64,000 nucleotides of DNA. Origin: an uncultured Acidobacteriaceae bacterium (GTDB taxonomy: Bacteria > Acidobacteriota > Terriglobia > Terriglobales > Acidobacteriaceae). Below the pieces are notes generated by a model. The model saw nothing but the letters and a program-made list of their open reading frames with translations. It was not told the DNA's origin and searched no databases. The stretch covers positions 9,366 to 73,365 of the forward strand of contig CAXTSB010000001.1 in assembly GCA_964246845.1 (NCBI GenBank). The letters run 5' to 3'. This document shows, piece after piece, positions 1,511 to 59,770 of the stretch; within the stretch, counting starts at the first letter, position 1; every line of letters begins with the position of its first letter. The translations under genes were made by a program, and so were the position numbers.

Positions 1511-3172
1511 ATGGTCGGTCTTCCGCTCGCCGTTTTCCTGCTCGCTCTGCTTCCATCCGGACCCGGGCAAGCGCAGCCTGCCCCGCTGGCCAAGCCTGAT
1601 CCCGCGGCGGCCCGTTTGCGCGGCGCGTACGGCCCGTTTCGCGCGAACAACGACCTCCTCTCCTACAAGCTGCACGTGCGGGTTGACCCATCCGCCGGGA
1701 CCATTCAGGGCGACAACCAAATCCGCTTCCGCATGCTCGCTCCGGGCCGCCGCGTGCAGGTCGACCTTTACCCCAACCTCCAAGTCGACAAGATCGCGAT
1801 GGGCGGCGCGGAGCTCCACTACACGCGCGAGCTCGGGGCGGTGTATGTGGATTTTCCCGAGGAGCTCCAAGCCGGCACCGAGTACACCATCGACTTCTTT
1901 TACTCCGGGCATCTGGAGGCGGTCGGCAGGTTCGGCGGCATGACCTTCGGCAAGGACCCGTCCGGCAATCCATGGATCGTGACCTCGTGCGAGGACGACG
2001 GCTCCAGCATCTGGTGGCCGTCCAAGGACCAATGGCGCGACGAACCGGACGACGGCATTGAGCTCTCGATTGAGGTGCCGGCCGGGCTTACCGATGTGTC
2101 GAACGGCAAGTTCGCCGCGAAAACCGACCTGCCCGGAGGCTGGACGCGTTGGGACTGGGCTGTGCATTACCCGATCAACAGCTACGACGTGGCCCTCAAC
2201 ATCGGCAAGTACGCGCACTGGTCCGACACGTACTCCGGCGTGCCGGTCGACTTTTACGCACTGCCTGAGAATCTCGAAAAAGCCAAAACACAGTTCGCGC
2301 AGGCAAAGGGCATGCTGGACGCGTTTCAGCACTACCTCGGCGAGTACCCTTTCATCCGCGACGGCTATAAGTTGATCGAGGTGCCGTACACCGGTATGGA
2401 GCACCAAAGCGCGGTCGCCTACGGCAATCACTACGCCAACGGCTACTACGGGCGCGACTGGACCGGAGTCGGCATCAGCCCCAAGTTCGACTTCATCATC
2501 ATTCACGAAAGCGGGCACGAGTGGTTCGGCAACGCCATCTCGGCGCGCGACGTGTCGGATATGTGGATTCACGAAGGCTGGGACACCTATGCCGAAAGCC
2601 TGTATGTCGAGTACCTGTACGGCAAGGCCGACGCGATCCGCTATGTCAACGGCTTCAAGCCCAAGGTGAAGGACAAAGCGCCCATCCTGACCGAGCGCGG
2701 GATCAATGCGATGCCTACTGAGGACCAATACTTCAAGGGCGCGCTGTTCCTTGCGACGCTCCGCAGCGTGGTGGATGACGACCAGAAATGGTTCGCGCTT
2801 GTCCACGACTACTATCAGCGGTTCAAATACAAAACCATCCTGACCGAGGACGTGGTCGCGTTCTTCAACCGGCAAAGCGGCATGGACTTGACGCCGGAGT
2901 TCGACCAGTACCTGCGTCATACAGCCATTCCAATGCTGCAGCTCCGGTTCGAGCCGGGCCGCGTGTCGTACCGCTGGAAGGTCGACGTGGACCCGTTCCG
3001 GATGCCGGTGAAAGTCGGCGACCCGGCGCACCGGCAAACAATCACGCCGACGACCGACTGGCAGGTCATGCCGTGGGCCGGCACGCCGGAGCAGTTCGGG
3101 GTGGCGACGGAGCTGTTTTATATCGATGTGGACCGGGGTGCGGCGCCGACGCAAACTACCGCGGCGAAGTAG
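1511..3172 (+). CDS. M1-family zinc metallopeptidase (aminopeptidase N-like), secreted
   Basis: HESGHEWFGN followed by WIHEG gives HExxH-X18-E, the gluzincin M1 signature. N-terminal signal-like hydrophobic segment. Confidence 0.85.
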   Translation: MVGLPLAVFLLALLPSGPGQAQPAPLAKPDPAAARLRGAYGPFRANNDLLSYKLHVRVDPSAGTIQGDNQIRFRMLAPGRRVQVDLYPNLQVDKIAMGGAELHYTRELGAVYVDFPEELQAGTEYTIDFFYSGHLEAVGRFGGMTFGKDPSGNPWIVTSCEDDGSSIWWPSKDQWRDEPDDGIELSIEVPAGLTDVSNGKFAAKTDLPGGWTRWDWAVHYPINSYDVALNIGKYAHWSDTYSGVPVDFYALPENLEKAKTQFAQAKGMLDAFQHYLGEYPFIRDGYKLIEVPYTGMEHQSAVAYGNHYANGYYGRDWTGVGISPKFDFIIIHESGHEWFGNAISARDVSDMWIHEGWDTYAESLYVEYLYGKADAIRYVNGFKPKVKDKAPILTERGINAMPTEDQYFKGALFLATLRSVVDDDQKWFALVHDYYQRFKYKTILTEDVVAFFNRQSGMDLTPEFDQYLRHTAIPMLQLRFEPGRVSYRWKVDVDPFRMPVKVGDPAHRQTITPTTDWQVMPWAGTPEQFGVATELFYIDVDRGAAPTQTTAAK

Positions 3173-3176
3173 CGGC

Positions 3177-3737
3177 TTATCCGGAACTCGGCTCCGATGC
3201 TCCGGCGAGCCATGTCCGGAGGCCGAACGCGAGGCTGGACCGTGACTGCTCCACGCTCAGGACGCCAGCCTCATGCAGGACGGCCAATCCATGGAGAAAC
3301 GCCCAAAGCGCATGCGAGGCCTCCAGGACGGCTTCGGTGCTGTAAACGCGCGCGACATGCTCAAGGAAGAACTCGGTATTGCGCGCGCACTGCGGCGTTT
3401 TCACGCCGGACCCGGAGGTATGCATATACAGGGCGTACACACGCGGCCGTTCCCGCGCGAACCGGAGATACGTTTCCGAGATGGCCTGGATGGCATCCGC
3501 AGGCTCTTTTCGGCCGGCGGCTTGCTCCATCGCGCACAGCACTTGGCGGCGAGCCTCCTCCGCCAAGGCGGCCTGTAGCTCCGCAAGACTGCCGAAATAG
3601 CGGTAAAGTGCGTTGGGCGCAAGCCCGAGCTTTGCCGCCACGGACCGAATCGCGACATGCTCAAGGCCGCCCTGCTCCACCTCCTCAAGCGCCGCCGTGA
3701 GTATCCCGGCTTGGCTGGTTTTTGCGGGATAGGCCAT
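3177..3737 (-). CDS. TetR/AcrR family transcriptional regulator
   Basis: N-terminal HTH region GLEHVAIRSVAAKLGLAPNALYRYFGS. Start placed at MAYPAKT (CAT at 3735-3737); the longer ORF reaching 3869 would overlap the divergent SDR start (3829) and is not supported. Confidence 0.85.
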   Translation of the reverse strand: MAYPAKTSQAGILTAALEEVEQGGLEHVAIRSVAAKLGLAPNALYRYFGSLAELQAALAEEARRQVLCAMEQAAGRKEPADAIQAISETYLRFARERPRVYALYMHTSGSGVKTPQCARNTEFFLEHVARVYSTEAVLEASHALWAFLHGLAVLHEAGVLSVEQSRSSLAFGLRTWLAGASEPSSG

Positions 3738-3746
3738 GAATGCAAC

Positions 3747-3797
3747 TGTACAGAGAGTTCTGCACAAAGCGCTTACCTGATAGGTGTACACTGTACA
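3747..3797. promoter_or_regulatory. Candidate TetR operator region: three palindromic TGTACA hexamers in the divergent TetR/SDR intergenic
   Basis: TGTACA at 3747-3752, 3785-3790 and 3792-3797 (the last two form TGTACACTGTACA), between divergent starts at 3737 and 3829. Confidence 0.4.
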
Positions 3798-3828
3798 TCT
3801 AAGGGCGAGAACCCTTACTGGAGGTCCT

Positions 3829-4557
3829 ATGGCGGAAGTGGTTTTAATCACGGGAGCAAATAAGGGCATTGGCTTCGAGGTGGCGCGTCAGCTGGGGCAT
3901 GCGGGCTTTACGGTGCTGCTGGGAGCACGCGATGCTTCGCGGGGAGAACAAGCCGCGGCCAAGCTGCGTGCGGAAGGCTCGGATGTCCGCGCCGTCGAGG
4001 CGGACCTCAACCGCGCCACCGAAAGCGGCGCGGCGCTCGCCGGGCAAATTAACGAGGAGTTCGGGCATCTGGACGTGCTGATCAACAATGCAGCCATTTT
4101 CATACAGCAGAAAGACGGGCATGCCAGTGACGTTGATATTGAAATACTGCGGCAAACATTTGAAACGAACTTTTTCGGAACGGTCGCGTTCACGCAGCCG
4201 CTGTTACCCCTTCTGCGCGCGGCCGAGCACGCGCGGATCGTGAACGTGTCGAGTGGGCTGGGCTCGCTCGACATCAACAGTGATCCCGGCTCGCCGTTCT
4301 ATCATGCGAAATCTCTTGCGTATAACGCGTCTAAGGCGGCACTGAATATGTTTACAGTGGGCTTGGCGTATGACCTGCGCGACACCAAGATCAGGATCAA
4401 CTCTGCTTGCCCCGGCTACACCGCAACTGATCTAAACAACCACAGCGGGCCGCAAACGGTTGAGGAAGGCGCGGTCGCCATCGTGCGGCTTGCACAGCTG
4501 CCCGAGGACGGGCCGACCGGCAGTTTTATACATAAGGACGGAACTTATTCCTGGTAG
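3829..4557 (+). CDS. Short-chain dehydrogenase/reductase (SDR) family oxidoreductase
   Basis: MAEVVLITGANKGIGFEVARQL (TGxxxGIG Rossmann motif), NNAA, and YNASK (YxxxK catalytic motif). GGAGG RBS at 3820-3824. Confidence 0.9.
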   Translation: MAEVVLITGANKGIGFEVARQLGHAGFTVLLGARDASRGEQAAAKLRAEGSDVRAVEADLNRATESGAALAGQINEEFGHLDVLINNAAIFIQQKDGHASDVDIEILRQTFETNFFGTVAFTQPLLPLLRAAEHARIVNVSSGLGSLDINSDPGSPFYHAKSLAYNASKAALNMFTVGLAYDLRDTKIRINSACPGYTATDLNNHSGPQTVEEGAVAIVRLAQLPEDGPTGSFIHKDGTYSW

Positions 4558-4674
4558 TCGAGGCAGGCAGCGCGTGTTCCTTCGAAAAACTTCTTAGCTG
4601 GAATGCAATACATTCCCTTGGAGGCAGCCGGTTTTGGAAGAAAAGCGGGTGCGGCGACGGCAGGAGTTGTAGAG

Positions 4675-5361
4675 TCAGGCTGCATGCTGCGGTACGGGCG
4701 CATTGAACTTGCGCTGGTAGTAGGCGGTCGTGGCGATAATCGCAGGCACGCCGACCAGCGTAGGCCAAAGCCATAGGAGCACATGCTGCCCGGCAATCGC
4801 GGCGATCGCCGTGACGCTGAATGCCGACCACGCGGCGATATAGCTGCCGATGAAGTTGCCCAGGTGCGTGTACCACCAGAACAGCTTCTCCTTGGGCTTG
4901 CGGACGAAGCTGCGCATCTCCACGAATGCGAGCCGCATGCCGATCAGGCCGAAGATCACGGGCACGATGCGCGGCATGTGCATGATGTCCGGCCGGAACC
5001 AACCCAGGCCGGCGAGCAGCGCGCTTGTAGCGAAGGTAAGCACGCCGGCAAACCAGTCGATCGGCTTCGCGCTCCCGCCGCGTGCGAGACCCTTGAGCTT
5101 GAGCACGCGCCAACCGGAAAACGCGGCGTAAAAGCTGAACACCGCGACCAGCGCTAGAAAGAGCACCGGCCGGAACAGGGCCATGGGGAATGCCGTCGCC
5201 GCCACCAGCCCCATGGACCACAGATACACCATGCCCCAGCGCTTGTGCTGCTTGCCGCCCTTCGCGGTCACCAGCGCGACCGGAGCCAGCAGGAAGCTCC
5301 CAAAGCCCGCGGCGGTGTGGACGGCGAGCAGCCCGCGCATCCAGACTGGGTCGTGCGTCAT
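4675..5361 (-). CDS. Integral membrane protein, unknown function
   Basis: Several long hydrophobic segments. Start placed at MTHDPVW (CAT at 5359-5361). Confidence 0.6.
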   Translation of the reverse strand: MTHDPVWMRGLLAVHTAAGFGSFLLAPVALVTAKGGKQHKRWGMVYLWSMGLVAATAFPMALFRPVLFLALVAVFSFYAAFSGWRVLKLKGLARGGSAKPIDWFAGVLTFATSALLAGLGWFRPDIMHMPRIVPVIFGLIGMRLAFVEMRSFVRKPKEKLFWWYTHLGNFIGSYIAAWSAFSVTAIAAIAGQHVLLWLWPTLVGVPAIIATTAYYQRKFNAPVPQHAA

Positions 5362-27679: not shown

Positions 27680-28033
27680 ATGAAGGAAGAAAAGGGCACA
27701 AGTTGGGTCGCGGACGCACGCAAACTCCTCCAGGATTTTGTGGCACCGGAGTTGCGCGCGATTTCCGCGCGCCTGGATGCAGCTGACAGGCAAGACATAG
27801 AGCGCGACAAGGTCGCGGCGGAACGGCATTCCGCACTGCTCGACATGCTGGCGCAGCGCGACAAGGTTGCGGAAGAGCGGCATGCCCTTCTGCTTGAGAA
27901 AATAGAGGGCGGGCGTCGTGAACTGGAAAGCGCCCGCCGCGAAATTCTTTTGCAAGTAGAGCTTGCCATCGCGAAAGCCCGGCTGGGCGAGCAGCCGGTG
28001 AGCCGCAGCGAAGCACCTCCACCTACCCAATAG
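27680..28033 (+). CDS. Small coiled-coil protein (117 aa), paralog of 31367-31681
   Basis: AGGAAG RBS. Heptad-like charged sequence. N-terminal motif ARKLLQDFVAPELRAISARL. Packed between iscU (7-nt gap) and iscA (13-nt gap). Confidence 0.65.
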   Translation: MKEEKGTSWVADARKLLQDFVAPELRAISARLDAADRQDIERDKVAAERHSALLDMLAQRDKVAEERHALLLEKIEGGRRELESARREILLQVELAIAKARLGEQPVSRSEAPPPTQ

Positions 28034-29011: not shown

Positions 29012-29419
29012 ATGCCGCTGGTTAGAATTTCCGTCCTTCAAAGCATGGCTCCTGAACGGCGCGGAAAACTGCCGCGCCTGGTGTATGGAGCCATGCGCTC
29101 CGCGATCGGCATTCCGGACGGCGATCTTTTCGTCGCTCTTACGCCGCATGCCGAGAACGAGCTGGTGTTCGATCCCGGCTTCATGGGCATCCGGCGCACC
29201 TCCGATTTCACGCTGATTCACATTACTTTGCGGGCCGGGCGGCCGCAGGAGTTGAAGCAAACCCTCTACCGCGAGGTCGCACGGGCGCTTGAAGAGCAGG
29301 CCGGGATTGCTCCGGCGGATGTGATGATCGTGCTGGCGGAAAACAGCAGCGCGGATTGGTCGTTCGGCAACGGGGAAGCGCAGTACCTGCTGAACTCTCC
29401 CGCGCAAGGGAAGAGTTGA
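29012..29419 (+). CDS. Tautomerase-family (4-OT-like, Pro1) protein embedded in the isc operon
   Basis: MPLVRISV... with Pro at position 2 and a tandem beta-alpha-beta-like layout. The stop abuts the hscA ATG at 29420. Confidence 0.6.
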   Translation: MPLVRISVLQSMAPERRGKLPRLVYGAMRSAIGIPDGDLFVALTPHAENELVFDPGFMGIRRTSDFTLIHITLRAGRPQELKQTLYREVARALEEQAGIAPADVMIVLAENSSADWSFGNGEAQYLLNSPAQGKS

Positions 29420-31366: not shown

Positions 31367-31681
31367 ATGAGCGCGAGCGAGAAGCTGTCGATCGTCGGCG
31401 ATGTGCGGAAAGCACTGCAAGATTTTCTTGCACCGGAGCTGGGCGAGCTGAAGGCAAAACTGCAAGCTTTGTCAGATGAAGTACGTCAGGGTTTTGCAGC
31501 ACAAACCGAGAGCCGGCAAGAGATGGAGACACGACTCATCCGAGAGATTAAGAACTCCGAGGAGAAGCTTTTGCTCCGCATCCAGCTTTCCGAGGCAAAT
31601 ACAAAGATGGAGCAGGCAATGCGTACCGCCGACGCTGCGCTGCGCGAGAACGAGCAACTCAAGCGGGAGAAAACACAATGA
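31367..31681 (+). CDS. Small coiled-coil protein (104 aa), paralog of 27680-28033
   Basis: VRKALQDFLAPELGELKAKL N-terminal motif and charged heptad-like sequence. ATGA overlap with the fdx start at 31678. Confidence 0.65.
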   Translation: MSASEKLSIVGDVRKALQDFLAPELGELKAKLQALSDEVRQGFAAQTESRQEMETRLIREIKNSEEKLLLRIQLSEANTKMEQAMRTADAALRENEQLKREKTQ

Positions 31682-35954: not shown

Positions 35955-36135
35955 GAGCGAGGGAAGAGGGTACAGGGCGGAGAGGAGAGGGCAGGGCAAA
36001 ACCTGTGACGAAGTTGATAGCTACCCTCATAGGCTTAGTGATTCCGGATGCATAGAGAGCACTCCGTAAGCAGCGAGCGTTCCTACAACAAGAACGGTTC
36101 CGCCGAACCCTCTACCCTGAACCTTCTACCCTTGC
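35955..36135. repeat. G/A-rich and C/T-rich heptamer-type repeats (GAGGGAAGAGGGTACAGGG ... CCCTCTACCCTGAACCTTCTACCC)
   Basis: Opposed purine-rich (35955-36000) and pyrimidine-rich (36108-36133) arms. Same family as 56546-56615 and 59626-59770. Confidence 0.55.
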
Positions 36136-46836: not shown

Positions 46837-47511
46837 ATGGGTCAAAAAGTTCATCCGTATGGGTTCCGCCTGGGCGTGAACAAACCTTGGCGCTCGCGTT
46901 GGTTCGTGGAGCGCGACTACGCGAAGCTGCTGGTCGAGGACGTACACCTGAAGCGCGAGCTCAAGGAAAAGCTCAAGGCGGCGGGCGTGAGCTCGGTCGA
47001 AATCGAGCGGCCCGGCAACAAGCTGCGGCTCATCATCCGCACCGCGCGTCCGGGCATCATCATCGGGCGCAAGGGCGCGGAAATCGACAAGCTCAAGGCT
47101 GAGCTCGCCAAGCGTACCAACCGGGATGTATTTATCGACATTCTGGAGGTGAACAAGCCGGAGCTTGACGCGCAGTTGGTGGCTGAGTCGATCGCGCTGC
47201 AACTGGAAAAGCGGGTAGGCTTCCGGCGCGCGATGCGCAAGGCCGTCGATTCGGCCCTGCGGTTCGGCTGCAAGGGCATCAAGGTGCGCGTGTCGGGCCG
47301 CTTGAACGGCAACGAGATTGCACGGTCGGAATGGTACCTGCAAGGCCGCCTGCCGCTCCACACCTTGCGTGCCGACATCGATTACGGCTTCGCCGAGGCG
47401 CACACCACCTATGGGATTATCGGGGTGAAGACCTGGGTGTACCGCGGCGACATCTACCAGCAGCGGCGCGGAGCGCAGCAGGGAGCCGGGGCCGGCCAGC
47501 CGGTATTCTAG
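46837..47511 (+). CDS. rpsC: 30S ribosomal protein S3
   Basis: [13 protein letters not shown]... Confidence 0.99.
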
Positions 47512-47535
47512 GAGCGCGACTCGCAGGGAGAAGCC

Positions 47536-47769
47536 ATGGTCGGCCAGAACGGAAAAGGTGATCTGGCGACGAAGGCGGATATCGTTGCTTCTGAGGAACG
47601 AACTGCGGAACGTATCGAGGACATGGAAACCAAGCTCTTCAAGGAGTTCCGCAAATGGGCTATCAGCTTCGAGTCCCGTTTCAAAGCCAACGAGGCGTTG
47701 GTGGTCGGCTTTAGCGAGCGCATGACAAACCTGGAAGAGCGCGTCGGCGATCTCGAACGCAAAGAGTAA
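47536..47769 (+). CDS. Hypothetical 77-aa coiled-coil protein inserted between rpsC and rplP
   Basis: ATG at 47536 preceded by GGGAGAAG. Charged heptad-like sequence ([30 protein letters not shown]...[13 protein letters not shown]). Visibly lower GC than neighbours. Fills the rpsC-rplP gap (24-nt and 21-nt spacers). Confidence 0.6.
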
Positions 47770-47790
47770 AGATAGAAAAGGAATTCAGCC

Positions 47791-48225
47791 ATGTTGATGC
47801 CGAAACGAGTCAAATACCGCAAGCAGCAGCGCGGCCGCATGAAAGGCAAGGCTTGGCGCGGCGCCGAGCTCGCTTTCGGTGAGTACGGCCTGAAGGCGAT
47901 GGAGTGCGGCTATATCACCGACCGTCAAATCGAGGCGAGCCGCATCGCGATGACCCGGTTCATTAAGCGCGGCGGCAAGATCTGGCTGCGGCTGTTTCCC
48001 GATAAGCCGATCACCAAGAAGCCGGCGGAAACCCGTATGGGCAAGGGCAAGGGCGCGCCGGACCACTGGTCGGCCGTGATTCGCCCGGGCAAGATGCTGT
48101 TTGAGATGGAAGGGGTTGCGCCGGATGTCGCCGAGGAAGCCATGCGCCTTGCGGCTAACAAGCTTCCGCTCAAAGTGCGTTTTGTGCAGCGCCACGATGT
48201 GAAGGCGGCGGCGCCGGCGAAGTAA
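47791..48225 (+). CDS. rplP: 50S ribosomal protein L16
   Basis: [15 protein letters not shown]... Confidence 0.99.
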
Positions 48226-56545: not shown

Positions 56546-56615
56546 AGGGTAGAGGGTAGAGGGTAGAAACAACGACAAGCGGCTTTGCCTGCTCTACCCC
56601 TCACCCTCTTCCCTC
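56546..56615. repeat. (GGGTAGA)n heptamer repeat hairpin in the infA-rpmJ spacer
   Basis: AGGGTAGAGGGTAGAGGGTAGA (56546-56567) faces the imperfect complement CTCTACCCCTCACCCTCTTCCCT (56592-56615). Confidence 0.7.
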
Positions 56616-56878: not shown

Positions 56879-57259
56879 ATGGCACGTATCGCCGGCGTCG
56901 ACCTGCCGAACAACAAGCAGACCCGCATCGCGCTGACCTACATCTACGGCATCGGGAACTCGCGCGCGCTGCGCGTATTGACCAAAGCCGACATCGACCC
57001 ATACCGCAAGCTCGCCACCTTGAGTGAAGACGAGATCAACCGCATCCGTCAAGCCATTGAGCAGGAAGGCGGCGTGGAAGGCGATGCGCGCAAGGAAGTC
57101 GCAATCAACATCAAGCGGCTGATCGATATCCAGAGCTACCGCGGACTGCGCCACCGGCGCAACCTGCCGGTGCGCGGCCAGCGCTCGCACACCAACGCGC
57201 GCACCCGGAAAGGCCCGCGCAAGGGCACCGTGGCCGGAAAGAAGAAGGCGACTAAGTAA
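56879..57259 (+). CDS. rpsM: 30S ribosomal protein S13
   Basis: [14 protein letters not shown]... Confidence 0.99.
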
Positions 57260-57687
57260 TGGCGAAGGCGCAAAAGAAAGCATCCGGCTCGGCTGCGAAG
57301 GCGGGCAAGGGCAAGAAATTCAAGAAGCGCGAACGAAAGAATGTCCCGTTCGGGCTCGTACACATCCAGGCCACGTTCAACAACACGATCGTGACCATCA
57401 CCGACGGGCAGGGCAATACGCTCTCCTGGAAGAGCTCCGGCTCGCTCGGCTTCCGCGGTTCGCGCAAGGGCACGCCCTTCGCGGCGCAGCAGGCAGCGCA
57501 GAACGCGGCCAACCAAGCGCGCGATCACGGGCTGCGCTCGGTCGATGTGCGTGTGTCCGGGCCGGGTTCGGGCCGTGAGTCGGCGGTGCGCGCGCTTGCC
57601 GCCGCGGGCATTGATGTGCGGTCGATTCGGGACGTCACGCCGATTCCGCACAACGGCTGCCGGCCTCCGAAGCGGCGTCGTGTCTAA
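57259..57687 (+). CDS. rpsK: 30S ribosomal protein S11
   Basis: [16 protein letters not shown]... Confidence 0.98.
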
Positions 57688-57692
57688 GAGCG

Positions 57693-57735
57693 AGGGACAA
57701 GGAACAGGGACCAGGGGGAGCCTGATCCCTGTTCC
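57693..57735. repeat. Hairpin repeat in the rpsK-rpsD spacer sharing a 16-mer with the rpsL-rpsG spacer
   Basis: AGGGACAAGGAACAGG occurs at 57693-57708 and identically at 38984-38999. Arms GGAACAGGGACCAG (57701-57714) and CTGATCCCTGTTCC (57722-57735) form a hairpin with one mismatch. Confidence 0.65.
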
Positions 57736-57814
57736 CTGATCCCTGCCTCACCACCCCCGGACCGGGATGAAGCTCACGCGTAAACCGGTCGACACTTGAA
57801 CCACGAGGAGAACC

Positions 57815-58444
57815 ATGGCACGCTACACCGGCGCTGTTTGCCGCCTTTGCCGCCGCGAAGGCATGAAGCTGTTTTTGAAGGGCACCCGCTGCTTCGGCGA
57901 GAAGTGCGCAATTGAAAAGCGCAATTTTGCTCCCGGCCAGCACGGGCGCGACCGCAAAGCCAAGATTGTCGGCTACGGCCTGCAGCTGCGCGAAAAGCAG
58001 AAAGCCAAGCGCATCTACTTCGCGCAAGAGTCGCAGTTCCGCGCGTACTACGAGAAGGCCAACACCGCGACCGGCGTCACCGGCGAGCTCCTTCTACAGC
58101 AGCTGGAGCGCCGTTTGGACAATGTCGCGTACCGGCTGGGCTACGCCACCTCGCGCCGACAAGCCCGGCAGATCGTACGTCATGGCCATGTTGAGGTGAA
58201 TGGCCGCAAGGTCAACATCCCATCGTTCCAGGTATCGGTCGGCGATACGATCAAGGTCCGCCCCGCGGCGTCCAAGTTCGGTGTGATCGAAACGGCGCGG
58301 GAGTTTGCCTCGCACCAGCCCACGCCGAACTGGCTGCAGATTGACGCGGCCGAGCTTGCGGGCAAGATCGTCGCGCTTCCCACCCGCCAGGATATTCAGC
58401 TGCCGGTCAACGAACAGCTGATCGTCGAGTTGTACTCGAAGTAA
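57815..58444 (+). CDS. rpsD: 30S ribosomal protein S4 (Cys4 N-terminal form)
   Basis: [31 protein letters not shown]. Confidence 0.98.
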
Positions 58445-59625: not shown

Positions 59626-59770
59626 GGGGAAGGATAGAGGGTAGAGAAGACCCGCTCCCCATCCCTCCGACTCGCGCTGAAACTTGCTCTAGGGTTCAAG
59701 GGCCGAGGGAGGTTTCACTCTCCCCTCCACCCTCTACCCTCTACCCTCTACCCTTTTTTTGAAGAGAGAC
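59626..59770 (+). repeat. Long imperfect inverted heptamer-repeat structure ending in T7, between rpoA and rplQ
   Basis: Purine-rich arm CAGGGTAAGGGGGGAAGGATAGAGGGTAGAGAAG (59626-59659). Pyrimidine-rich arm CTCTCCCCTCCACCCTCTACCCTCTACCCTCTACCC (59728-59763). Followed by TTTTTTT (59764-59770). Confidence 0.65.

Follow-up and report, generated by a model that had tools for sequence, protein, structure and literature searches.

What is a small coiled-coil gene doing between two ribosomal protein genes, and has it become part of the translation machinery or is it only carried along by it? Few gene orders in bacteria are as well conserved as that of the S10 operon, and in model bacteria the genes for S3 (rpsC) and L16 (rplP) are tightly adjacent. 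In a stretch of 64,000 nucleotides from an uncultured Acidobacteriaceae bacterium (contig CAXTSB010000001.1; this whole stretch is called the window below), the two genes are separated by a gap of 279 nt, and a same-strand open reading frame (ORF) of 77 codons at 47536-47769 occupies it. The evidence presented here leans towards a lineage-specific insertion into the ribosomal gene cluster, by capture of a gene from elsewhere rather than by acquisition of a ribosomal role. The junction is built as follows:

46837-47511, forward strand: rpsC, ribosomal protein S3 (PF00189 at 3e-36, PF07650 at 3e-20)
47512-47535, forward strand: spacer of 24 nt between S3 and the ORF, read from the sequence, with a Shine-Dalgarno-like GGGAGAAG at 47526-47533
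47536-47769, forward strand: ORF of 77 residues, an acidic small coiled-coil protein (homologs, synonymous and nonsynonymous differences, third-position bias, isoelectric point)
47572-47763, forward strand: region for a single long alpha-helix, residues 13-76 (AlphaFold2)
47608-47757, forward strand: conserved family module, residues 25-74 (invariant and near-invariant alignment columns; the module is common to 744 cluster representatives)
47770-47790, forward strand: spacer of 21 nt between the ORF and L16, read from the sequence, with the L16 ribosome-binding region AAAAGGAA at 47776-47783
47791-48225, forward strand: rplP, ribosomal protein L16 (PF00252 at 3e-53)

The first-pass annotation, made from the letters alone, had singled out this ORF for its position, a plausible ribosome-binding site, a GC content below that of its neighbors and a heptad-like sequence, and on each of these counts its description holds: S3 ends at 47511 and L16 begins at 47791, GGGAGAAG ends 2 nt ahead of the ATG, GC over the ORF is 0.52-0.55 against 0.62-0.66 in the flanks, and the heptads recur in the predicted helix described below. 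Two 151-nt unitigs from a low-depth run (X1) equal the window exactly across 47453-47603 and 47646-47796; both gene junctions are thus identical in the raw unitigs, and the arrangement is not an assembly chimera. No sigma-70-like promoter and no intrinsic-terminator-like site is found within the S3-ORF-L16 junction, and the covariance models of Rfam 15 give no match at E<=1 over 47512-47790.

The coding status of the ORF follows from how it has diverged. A search of 5.8 billion proteins returns 84 homologs of its product, and eight genomes, that of the window included, hold an ortholog at the rpsC-rplP junction (the seven further loci are L001, which lies on the same contig as L007, then L002, L003/L004, L009, L013, L130 and L131), so that it is the ORF itself, and not only a spacer, that is kept. 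Among six junction orthologs the proportion of nonsynonymous differences (pN) is 0.08-0.33 against a saturated proportion of synonymous differences (pS) of 0.64-0.92; in the closest pair, the window and L001, the ratio of nonsynonymous to synonymous rates (dN/dS) is 0.026, far below 1, and the two ORFs differ at 9, 5 and 37 sites in codon positions 1, 2 and 3, respectively. A GGAGG-type site lies 5-9 nt 5' of the start in the window, L001, L002, L003, L130 and L131, six of the eight copies at the junction; the spacers around these sites have diverged among the copies, and the starts in L009 and L013 are ambiguous. High-GC genomes yield many spurious ORFs, and an antisense ORF of 113 residues (47508-47849) overlaps this one, so that the 77-codon frame could have arisen by chance in non-coding sequence between the two genes, or the antisense frame could be the real gene; however, pN far below pS in this frame and the concentration of variation at the third codon position refute both versions, and with 84 to 744 protein homologs (depending on the search), stand-alone genes among them, and a conserved Shine-Dalgarno site, they are hardly credible. 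Judged by these substitution patterns, 47536-47769 is a genuine protein-coding gene under purifying selection.

Between the window and L001, pS in the ORF (0.74) is well over that in the flanking S3 (0.46) and L16 (0.48) genes, which could reflect a weaker constraint on codon usage or a partly separate history of the ORF. A leader peptide or regulatory upstream ORF was considered for the same interval and rejected: the peptide is strongly conserved, stand-alone homologs exist, and the distance from the ORF to L16 ranges from 17 to 99 nt across orthologs, a variation which argues that there is no fixed translational coupling.

Every locus with the gene at the S3-L16 junction has an S3 with 94% or more identity to that of the window (94-99% within the insertion-carrying clade). 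A metagenome scan with S3 yields 80 loci in which this protein is 84-92% identical; L16 is present in 72 of them, and when the 72 spacers are searched with the family profile in six frames, neither the ORF nor a remnant of it is found. In peat DNA and RNA runs with many S3 and L16 relatives, the depth over the ORF is nil, and the contigs skip from S3 to L16. As far as these genomes and metagenomes tell, the insertion is confined to one narrow Acidobacteriaceae clade, whose junction copies have ETK and SERM residues in common where most other family members differ. The premise from which the locus had first drawn attention, that S3 and L16 are normally adjacent with no gene between them, calls for an adjustment: the junction lacks the ORF in all 72 relatives, but the two genes are not tightly adjacent in Acidobacteriaceae, where the gaps in these loci range from 20 to 271 nt with a median of 121.5 nt, and 46 of the 72 are at least 100 nt long.

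These gaps have a content of their own. Of the 61 S3-L16 spacers in ORF-less relatives that reach 60 nt or more, 38 form one long hairpin along their whole length, with arms that consist of tandem heptamers: (CAGUGAU)n/(AUCACUG)n, (CAGGGAA)n/(UUCCCUG)n, (CAGUUGU)n/(ACAACUG)n or (AGUUCAC)n/(GUGAACU)n. The heptamer unit varies by locus while the arms remain complementary, which constitutes compensatory covariation, and fold z-scores are -3 to -8 for most of the 22 spacers that form a sequence cluster. Hairpin spacers include L050, L055, L057, L060-L062, L064, L066, L069, L077, L082-L085, L089, L090, L094, L097, L099, L100, L103, L107 and others (for example L060:2170-2330); none of the relatives' spacer hairpins has a match in Rfam. 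No heptamer hairpin or array is found at the S3-ORF-L16 junction of the window, and gene and hairpin are mutually exclusive at this site.

This exclusion, together with the long structured spacers of the relatives and the short distance from the ORF to L16, raises the question of whether the ORF acts in cis: by replacing the hairpin spacer, a translated ORF could, through ribosome traffic or mRNA structure, set the stability or processing of the mRNA or the ratio of S3 to L16, with the function of the peptide being secondary. Such a role is quite unlikely, as the protein sequence has been strongly conserved despite the saturation of synonymous sites, the same module is conserved in stand-alone genes and thus demands a function of the protein itself, and the variable distance to L16 speaks against a fixed coupling mechanism.

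Heptamer arrays are not limited to this spacer. Similar ones occur elsewhere in the loci of the relatives, and the window has such elements in other spacers: arrays at 56546-56567 (in the stretch 56546-56600), 59718-59754 (in 59700-59754) and 36105-36132, with the units AGGGTAG (3 copies), CTCTACC (5.3 copies) and GAACCCTCTACCCT (2 copies), as well as a hairpin at 57688-57750, between ORFs 57259-57687 and 57815-58444, in which the arm AGGGACA AGGAACA GGGACCA is paired with CCTGATC CCTGTTC CCTGATC. In locus L003, the sequence GCAGGGATTA (4275-4294) is duplicated in tandem where the junction ORF has its stop codon, and it is similar to the beginning of the hairpin arms in relatives. The closest known analogues of the heptamer hairpins are the heptanucleotide short tandemly repeated repetitive (STRR) sequences of cyanobacteria; TAACTGA repeats have reportedly been studied in Beggiatoaceae as well.

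The protein belongs to a sizeable family of hundreds of clusters. A profile search of 1.84 billion cluster representatives with a cut-off of E<=1e-3 yields 744 proteins, 119 of which reach E<=1e-10; the lengths of all 744 lie between 43 and 167 residues, with no fusions, and they consist of a variable N-terminal run of coiled-coil repeats and, C-terminal to it, a conserved module of some 50 residues with the consensus ETxLLxEFxKWA...G.xERL...EERVxxLE. The window protein has no match at E<=1 in Pfam and likewise none in NCBIfam, and scans of the family alignments against these two libraries return scattered, mostly sub-threshold coiled-coil matches, any one model being found in at most 15 of 55 members. 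Where longer members match individually, the matches fall on the variable N-terminal repeats and below curated cut-offs; they comprise precomputed or weak assignments to PF10805 (DUF2730), Apolipoprotein PF01442, DUF7310 PF23991, XhlA PF10779 and SpiroCoCo in some of these proteins, but no coiled-coil model of Pfam or NCBIfam matches the window protein and none covers the conserved C-terminal module. Membership in PF10805 was rejected, as the members with the precomputed label are sub-threshold on rescanning and show generic coiled-coil matches only. A profile search of the family alignments against the PDB gives a best match of E=0.2, PHROGs give no match family-wide, and PADLOC gives three isolated sub-significant matches among 43 members and nothing family-wide; the names of members in databases, distant ones included, are 'hypothetical protein' or obviously spurious automatic names.

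A motif scan of one-genome-per-species GTDB contigs finds 35 loci, nearly all in metagenome-assembled genomes (MAGs) of uncultured Acidobacteriaceae, with single MAGs from Bryobacteraceae, Korobacteraceae, Acidisarcina, Ktedonobacteraceae and Verrucomicrobia; none of the 35 comes from a record named as a cultured strain. Among family members with a named source, nearly all are MAGs of Acidobacteriaceae or Bryobacteraceae. On these searches, the family is one of free-standing small proteins without a curated model, mainly from Acidobacteriaceae and other Terriglobia. Outside the S10 operon its genes occupy the following places:

L015, L020, L021, L022: between nuoA and nuoC-nuoD (around positions 2080-4850)
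L016: 3 nt upstream of glmS
L017, L024, L126: upstream of ppx/gppA
L011: between an ABC permease gene and a UPF0014 gene
L014: adjoining rmuC
L034: between ftsY and ribD
L036: between an amylase gene and a NUDIX gene
L005, L006, L122: solitary genes between divergent neighbors

No partner gene recurs across these contexts. The possibility that the family is part of a toxin-antitoxin or defense system was rejected, since the neighbors differ in every context and the PADLOC matches are sub-significant. The nuoA-ORF-nuoC-nuoD lineage is a second case of a family gene inside a core operon; no nuoB is found there. In L015, L021 and L022, and probably also in L014 and L017, a TAGAAT box stands about 6-15 nt upstream of the presumed start and there is no Shine-Dalgarno site, which suggests that copies outside the S10 operon may be transcribed from a promoter of their own, possibly into mRNAs with no leader or a very short one. 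Genomes can hold a main-type copy plus at least one distant paralog (L007 with L027, L017 with L035; P0005 and P0208 are a main-type copy and a distant paralog on one 2.65-Mb contig), and TBLASTN and profile searches find no second family copy in the 64 kb of the window.

A gene whose contexts are many and unrelated, which often stands between housekeeping genes of the same strand, and whose third codon positions are poorer in GC than those of its neighbors, may look like the small selfish insertion tolerated inside a highly expressed operon that the first-pass annotation had proposed; a mobile element or the remnant of an addiction module would be further forms of such an insertion. Several copies indeed look frameshifted (in L019, L026, L030, L033, L037, L038 and L041 the family match is split between reading frames or truncated), and the copy in L029 is flanked on both sides by a perfect direct repeat of 20 nt. 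The split and truncated copies are, however, either pseudogenes or the result of indel errors in the assembly of the MAGs; L033 has the same upstream genes as the intact L016 copy in the same MAG. Moreover, BLASTN of 150-nt flanks finds similarity within the same context group only and none between groups, no transposase, integrase, recombinase or partner gene lies near the junction copies, no PHROG or PADLOC family matches across the alignment, and no significant inverted or direct repeats bracket the window ORF, save for a weak match over 34 nt. The stable position and the purifying selection over a saturating synonymous divergence equally conflict with a selfish nature, which is thus very unlikely. 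The 34-nt match is an imperfect direct repeat (71% identity) between the 3' end of rpsC (47466-47499) and the spacer with the start of the ORF (47514-47547); it may be a trace of an insertion junction or a product of chance in GC-rich sequence.

The product of the gene has a size of roughly 9 kDa, an isoelectric point (pI) of 5.10 and, by hand count, a net charge of about -3; across 11 orthologs the pI is 4.8-5.6. AlphaFold2, given an alignment of 43 sequences and modelling the monomer only, predicts one unbroken helix over residues 13-76 with a mean predicted local distance difference test score (pLDDT) of 90.7. Within the module, the heptad a and d positions are 35/38/42/45/49/52/56/59/63/66/70/73, which are conserved as hydrophobic except for Asn at 52, and the core is rich in Phe (positions 38, 45, 49 and 59); a long alpha-helix with a conserved hydrophobic pattern in a and d places the protein in the coiled-coil class. 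Invariant or near-invariant are E31, T32, L34, L35, E37, F38, R39, K40, W41, A42, G58, R62, L66, E67, E68, R69, V70 and E74. Given a single long helix whose heptad core is rich in Phe, the most likely mode of action is that of a homo-oligomeric coiled coil which makes contacts to other proteins, and the conserved features would fit such an oligomer with a specific binding surface. Comparison of the predicted structure to the PDB by Foldseek gives no match, a single helix being uninformative for such a comparison. In structural class the protein resembles ZapB and SlyX, which are small, acidic, single-helix homo-oligomeric coiled coils of about 70-80 residues, built of heptads, with no enzymatic motif and a role in protein-protein contacts. 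The likeness ends there: profile searches of Pfam, NCBIfam and the PDB show no sequence similarity to either, and the EFRKW...G-F-x-E-R...LEERV module is specific to the family of the window protein.

Could this coiled coil be a ribosome factor? The proposal, which extends the ribosome-associated or assembly factor of the first-pass annotation, is that of a lineage-specific ribosome-associated protein (an assembly factor, a hibernation factor or an accessory subunit at S3/L16) recruited to the operon for synthesis in step with ribosomal proteins, and its appeal lies in the location: the gene stands between two ribosomal protein genes without transcription signals of its own, its position is stable in eight loci, its Shine-Dalgarno site is conserved, it is under strong purifying selection, and no other main-type copy is seen on the clade's large contigs. 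Against this, the protein lacks the basic composition of ribosomal proteins and is acidic in all orthologs examined. Its codon adaptation is not comparable either: with the 19 ribosomal protein genes of the window as the reference set, the codon adaptation index (CAI) of the ORF is 0.53, below every one of them (0.60-0.74; EF-Tu reaches 0.78), and its GC content at third codon positions (GC3) is 0.69 against 0.77-0.89 in the neighboring ribosomal protein genes, being lower than in both S3 and L16 in seven of the seven genomes checked. Nor is the family linked to translation genes wherever it occurs, as the closest members in sister lineages are found at nuo, glmS, ppx and elsewhere, never near ribosomal genes, while 72 related S10 operons do without the gene; and no similarity to ribosomal or ribosome-factor families is found in Pfam, NCBIfam or the PDB. 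A ribosome factor is accordingly possible but doubtful, with location alone in its favor, and the low CAI and GC3, the acidic pI and the non-ribosomal contexts of the sister-lineage copies argue in particular against a stoichiometric ribosomal component. A narrower version, in which a clade-specific coiled-coil adaptor docks on the ribosome near S3/L16, or on an assembly intermediate, and has replaced an ancestral structured RNA spacer, is rather unlikely; what speaks for it is that the junction gene is the only main-type copy seen on the large contigs and is kept under strong purifying selection.

These considerations favor, on balance and with some reserve, the reading that a relocating, lineage-specific coiled-coil gene was captured into the rpsC-rplP spacer, where it is expressed from the S10 transcript and retained as a functional passenger. 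The main-type gene would occupy different chromosomal places in different lineages and, in the ancestor of a narrow Acidobacteriaceae clade, would have been captured, probably once, at a site which in related lineages is a long non-coding stretch, often with a heptamer-repeat hairpin. Because it has no promoter or terminator of its own and has kept a Shine-Dalgarno site, the captured gene would be transcribed within the polycistronic S10 mRNA and translated independently; its expression would thereby be tied to growth rate, and it would be a retained passenger rather than a stoichiometric component of the ribosome, with a role that is probably not ribosomal.

Several points weigh against this capture of a passenger. 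The long retention of the gene in a very conserved operon, evident from the saturated synonymous sites, is compatible with a function linked to translation, and its low codon adaptation may come in part from a composition rich in Glu, Lys and Arg. For the large contigs of the clade (2.65, 4.5 and 1.7 Mb), no main-type copy other than the one at the junction is listed, so that the role of the family in this clade would be supplied from the S10 operon, which is unexpected for a dispensable passenger. In a neighbor-joining tree of 57 residues the junction copies fall into two groups, which leaves a single capture event unproven. Finally, the only runs that contain the exact sequence are low-depth and of DNA type; the search yielded no RNA run of this organism.

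The S10 operon is not the only core operon of the window with such an ORF. Two more small, charged, helical ORFs, from which the first-pass annotation had suspected a recurring phenomenon, lie in the isc operon:

27680-28033, same strand as its neighbors: small charged helical ORF of 117 residues between iscU and an iscA-like gene
31367-31681, same strand as its neighbors: small charged helical ORF of 104 residues between hscA and fdx

Both are real, and both positions are kept in three relatives (L132-L134). A common N-terminal motif (59% identity over 27 residues, E=2e-8) relates them to each other, and neither belongs to a Pfam family. Their GC3 of 0.61-0.64 is below that of their neighbors, and their CAI is 0.46; the second has 25 homologs. 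They resemble the S10-operon ORF in being small, charged, helical, low in GC3, wedged between same-strand housekeeping genes and kept in position, but homology to it was rejected, with an hhalign probability of 0.4%. The phenomenon is thus recurrent without being one of a single family: the fixation of small coiled-coil genes inside housekeeping operons is a trait of this lineage, to which two or more unrelated families contribute. A tautomerase-family gene (PF14552, E=3e-29) also lies in the isc operon of the window, at 29012-29419, between the hscB-like and hscA genes; in L132-L134 these two genes are 14-18 nt apart with no gene between them, so that the tautomerase gene is a further insertion into the isc operon, specific to the sub-lineage of the window.

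Insertions into translation-gene clusters are known from Gammaproteobacteria and Bacilli, where, in the passages that describe them, a few unrelated genes likewise invade a conserved cluster and are then inherited vertically. Those insertions are mostly between operons, with one inside the rpoBC operon, and the same passages describe none in the S10 operon; here, in contrast, a single 77-codon gene with no promoter of its own has entered the S10 operon itself, between rpsC and rplP. In the literature, no description was found of a gene at the rpsC-rplP junction or of S10-operon insertions in Acidobacteria.

Because the order of the S10 operon is so conserved, a gene fixed for long between rpsC and rplP is a rare natural experiment, informative on the limits of tolerance of this operon and on the way in which a new gene comes under growth-coupled expression. 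The heptamer hairpins, which are the usual content of this junction in the group and apparently also occur in other spacers of ribosomal operons, may matter for the processing or stability of ribosomal protein mRNAs. Should the protein turn out to associate with ribosomes, it would add a lineage-specific factor to those known for the ribosome, and as a docking adaptor it would be a recent example of a component added to the core gene cluster of the ribosome; if it is not ribosome-associated, the locus would be a clean example of the capture of a neutral or mildly beneficial gene by a core operon. The family itself is typical of the small proteins of soil Acidobacteria, a proteome still unexplored.

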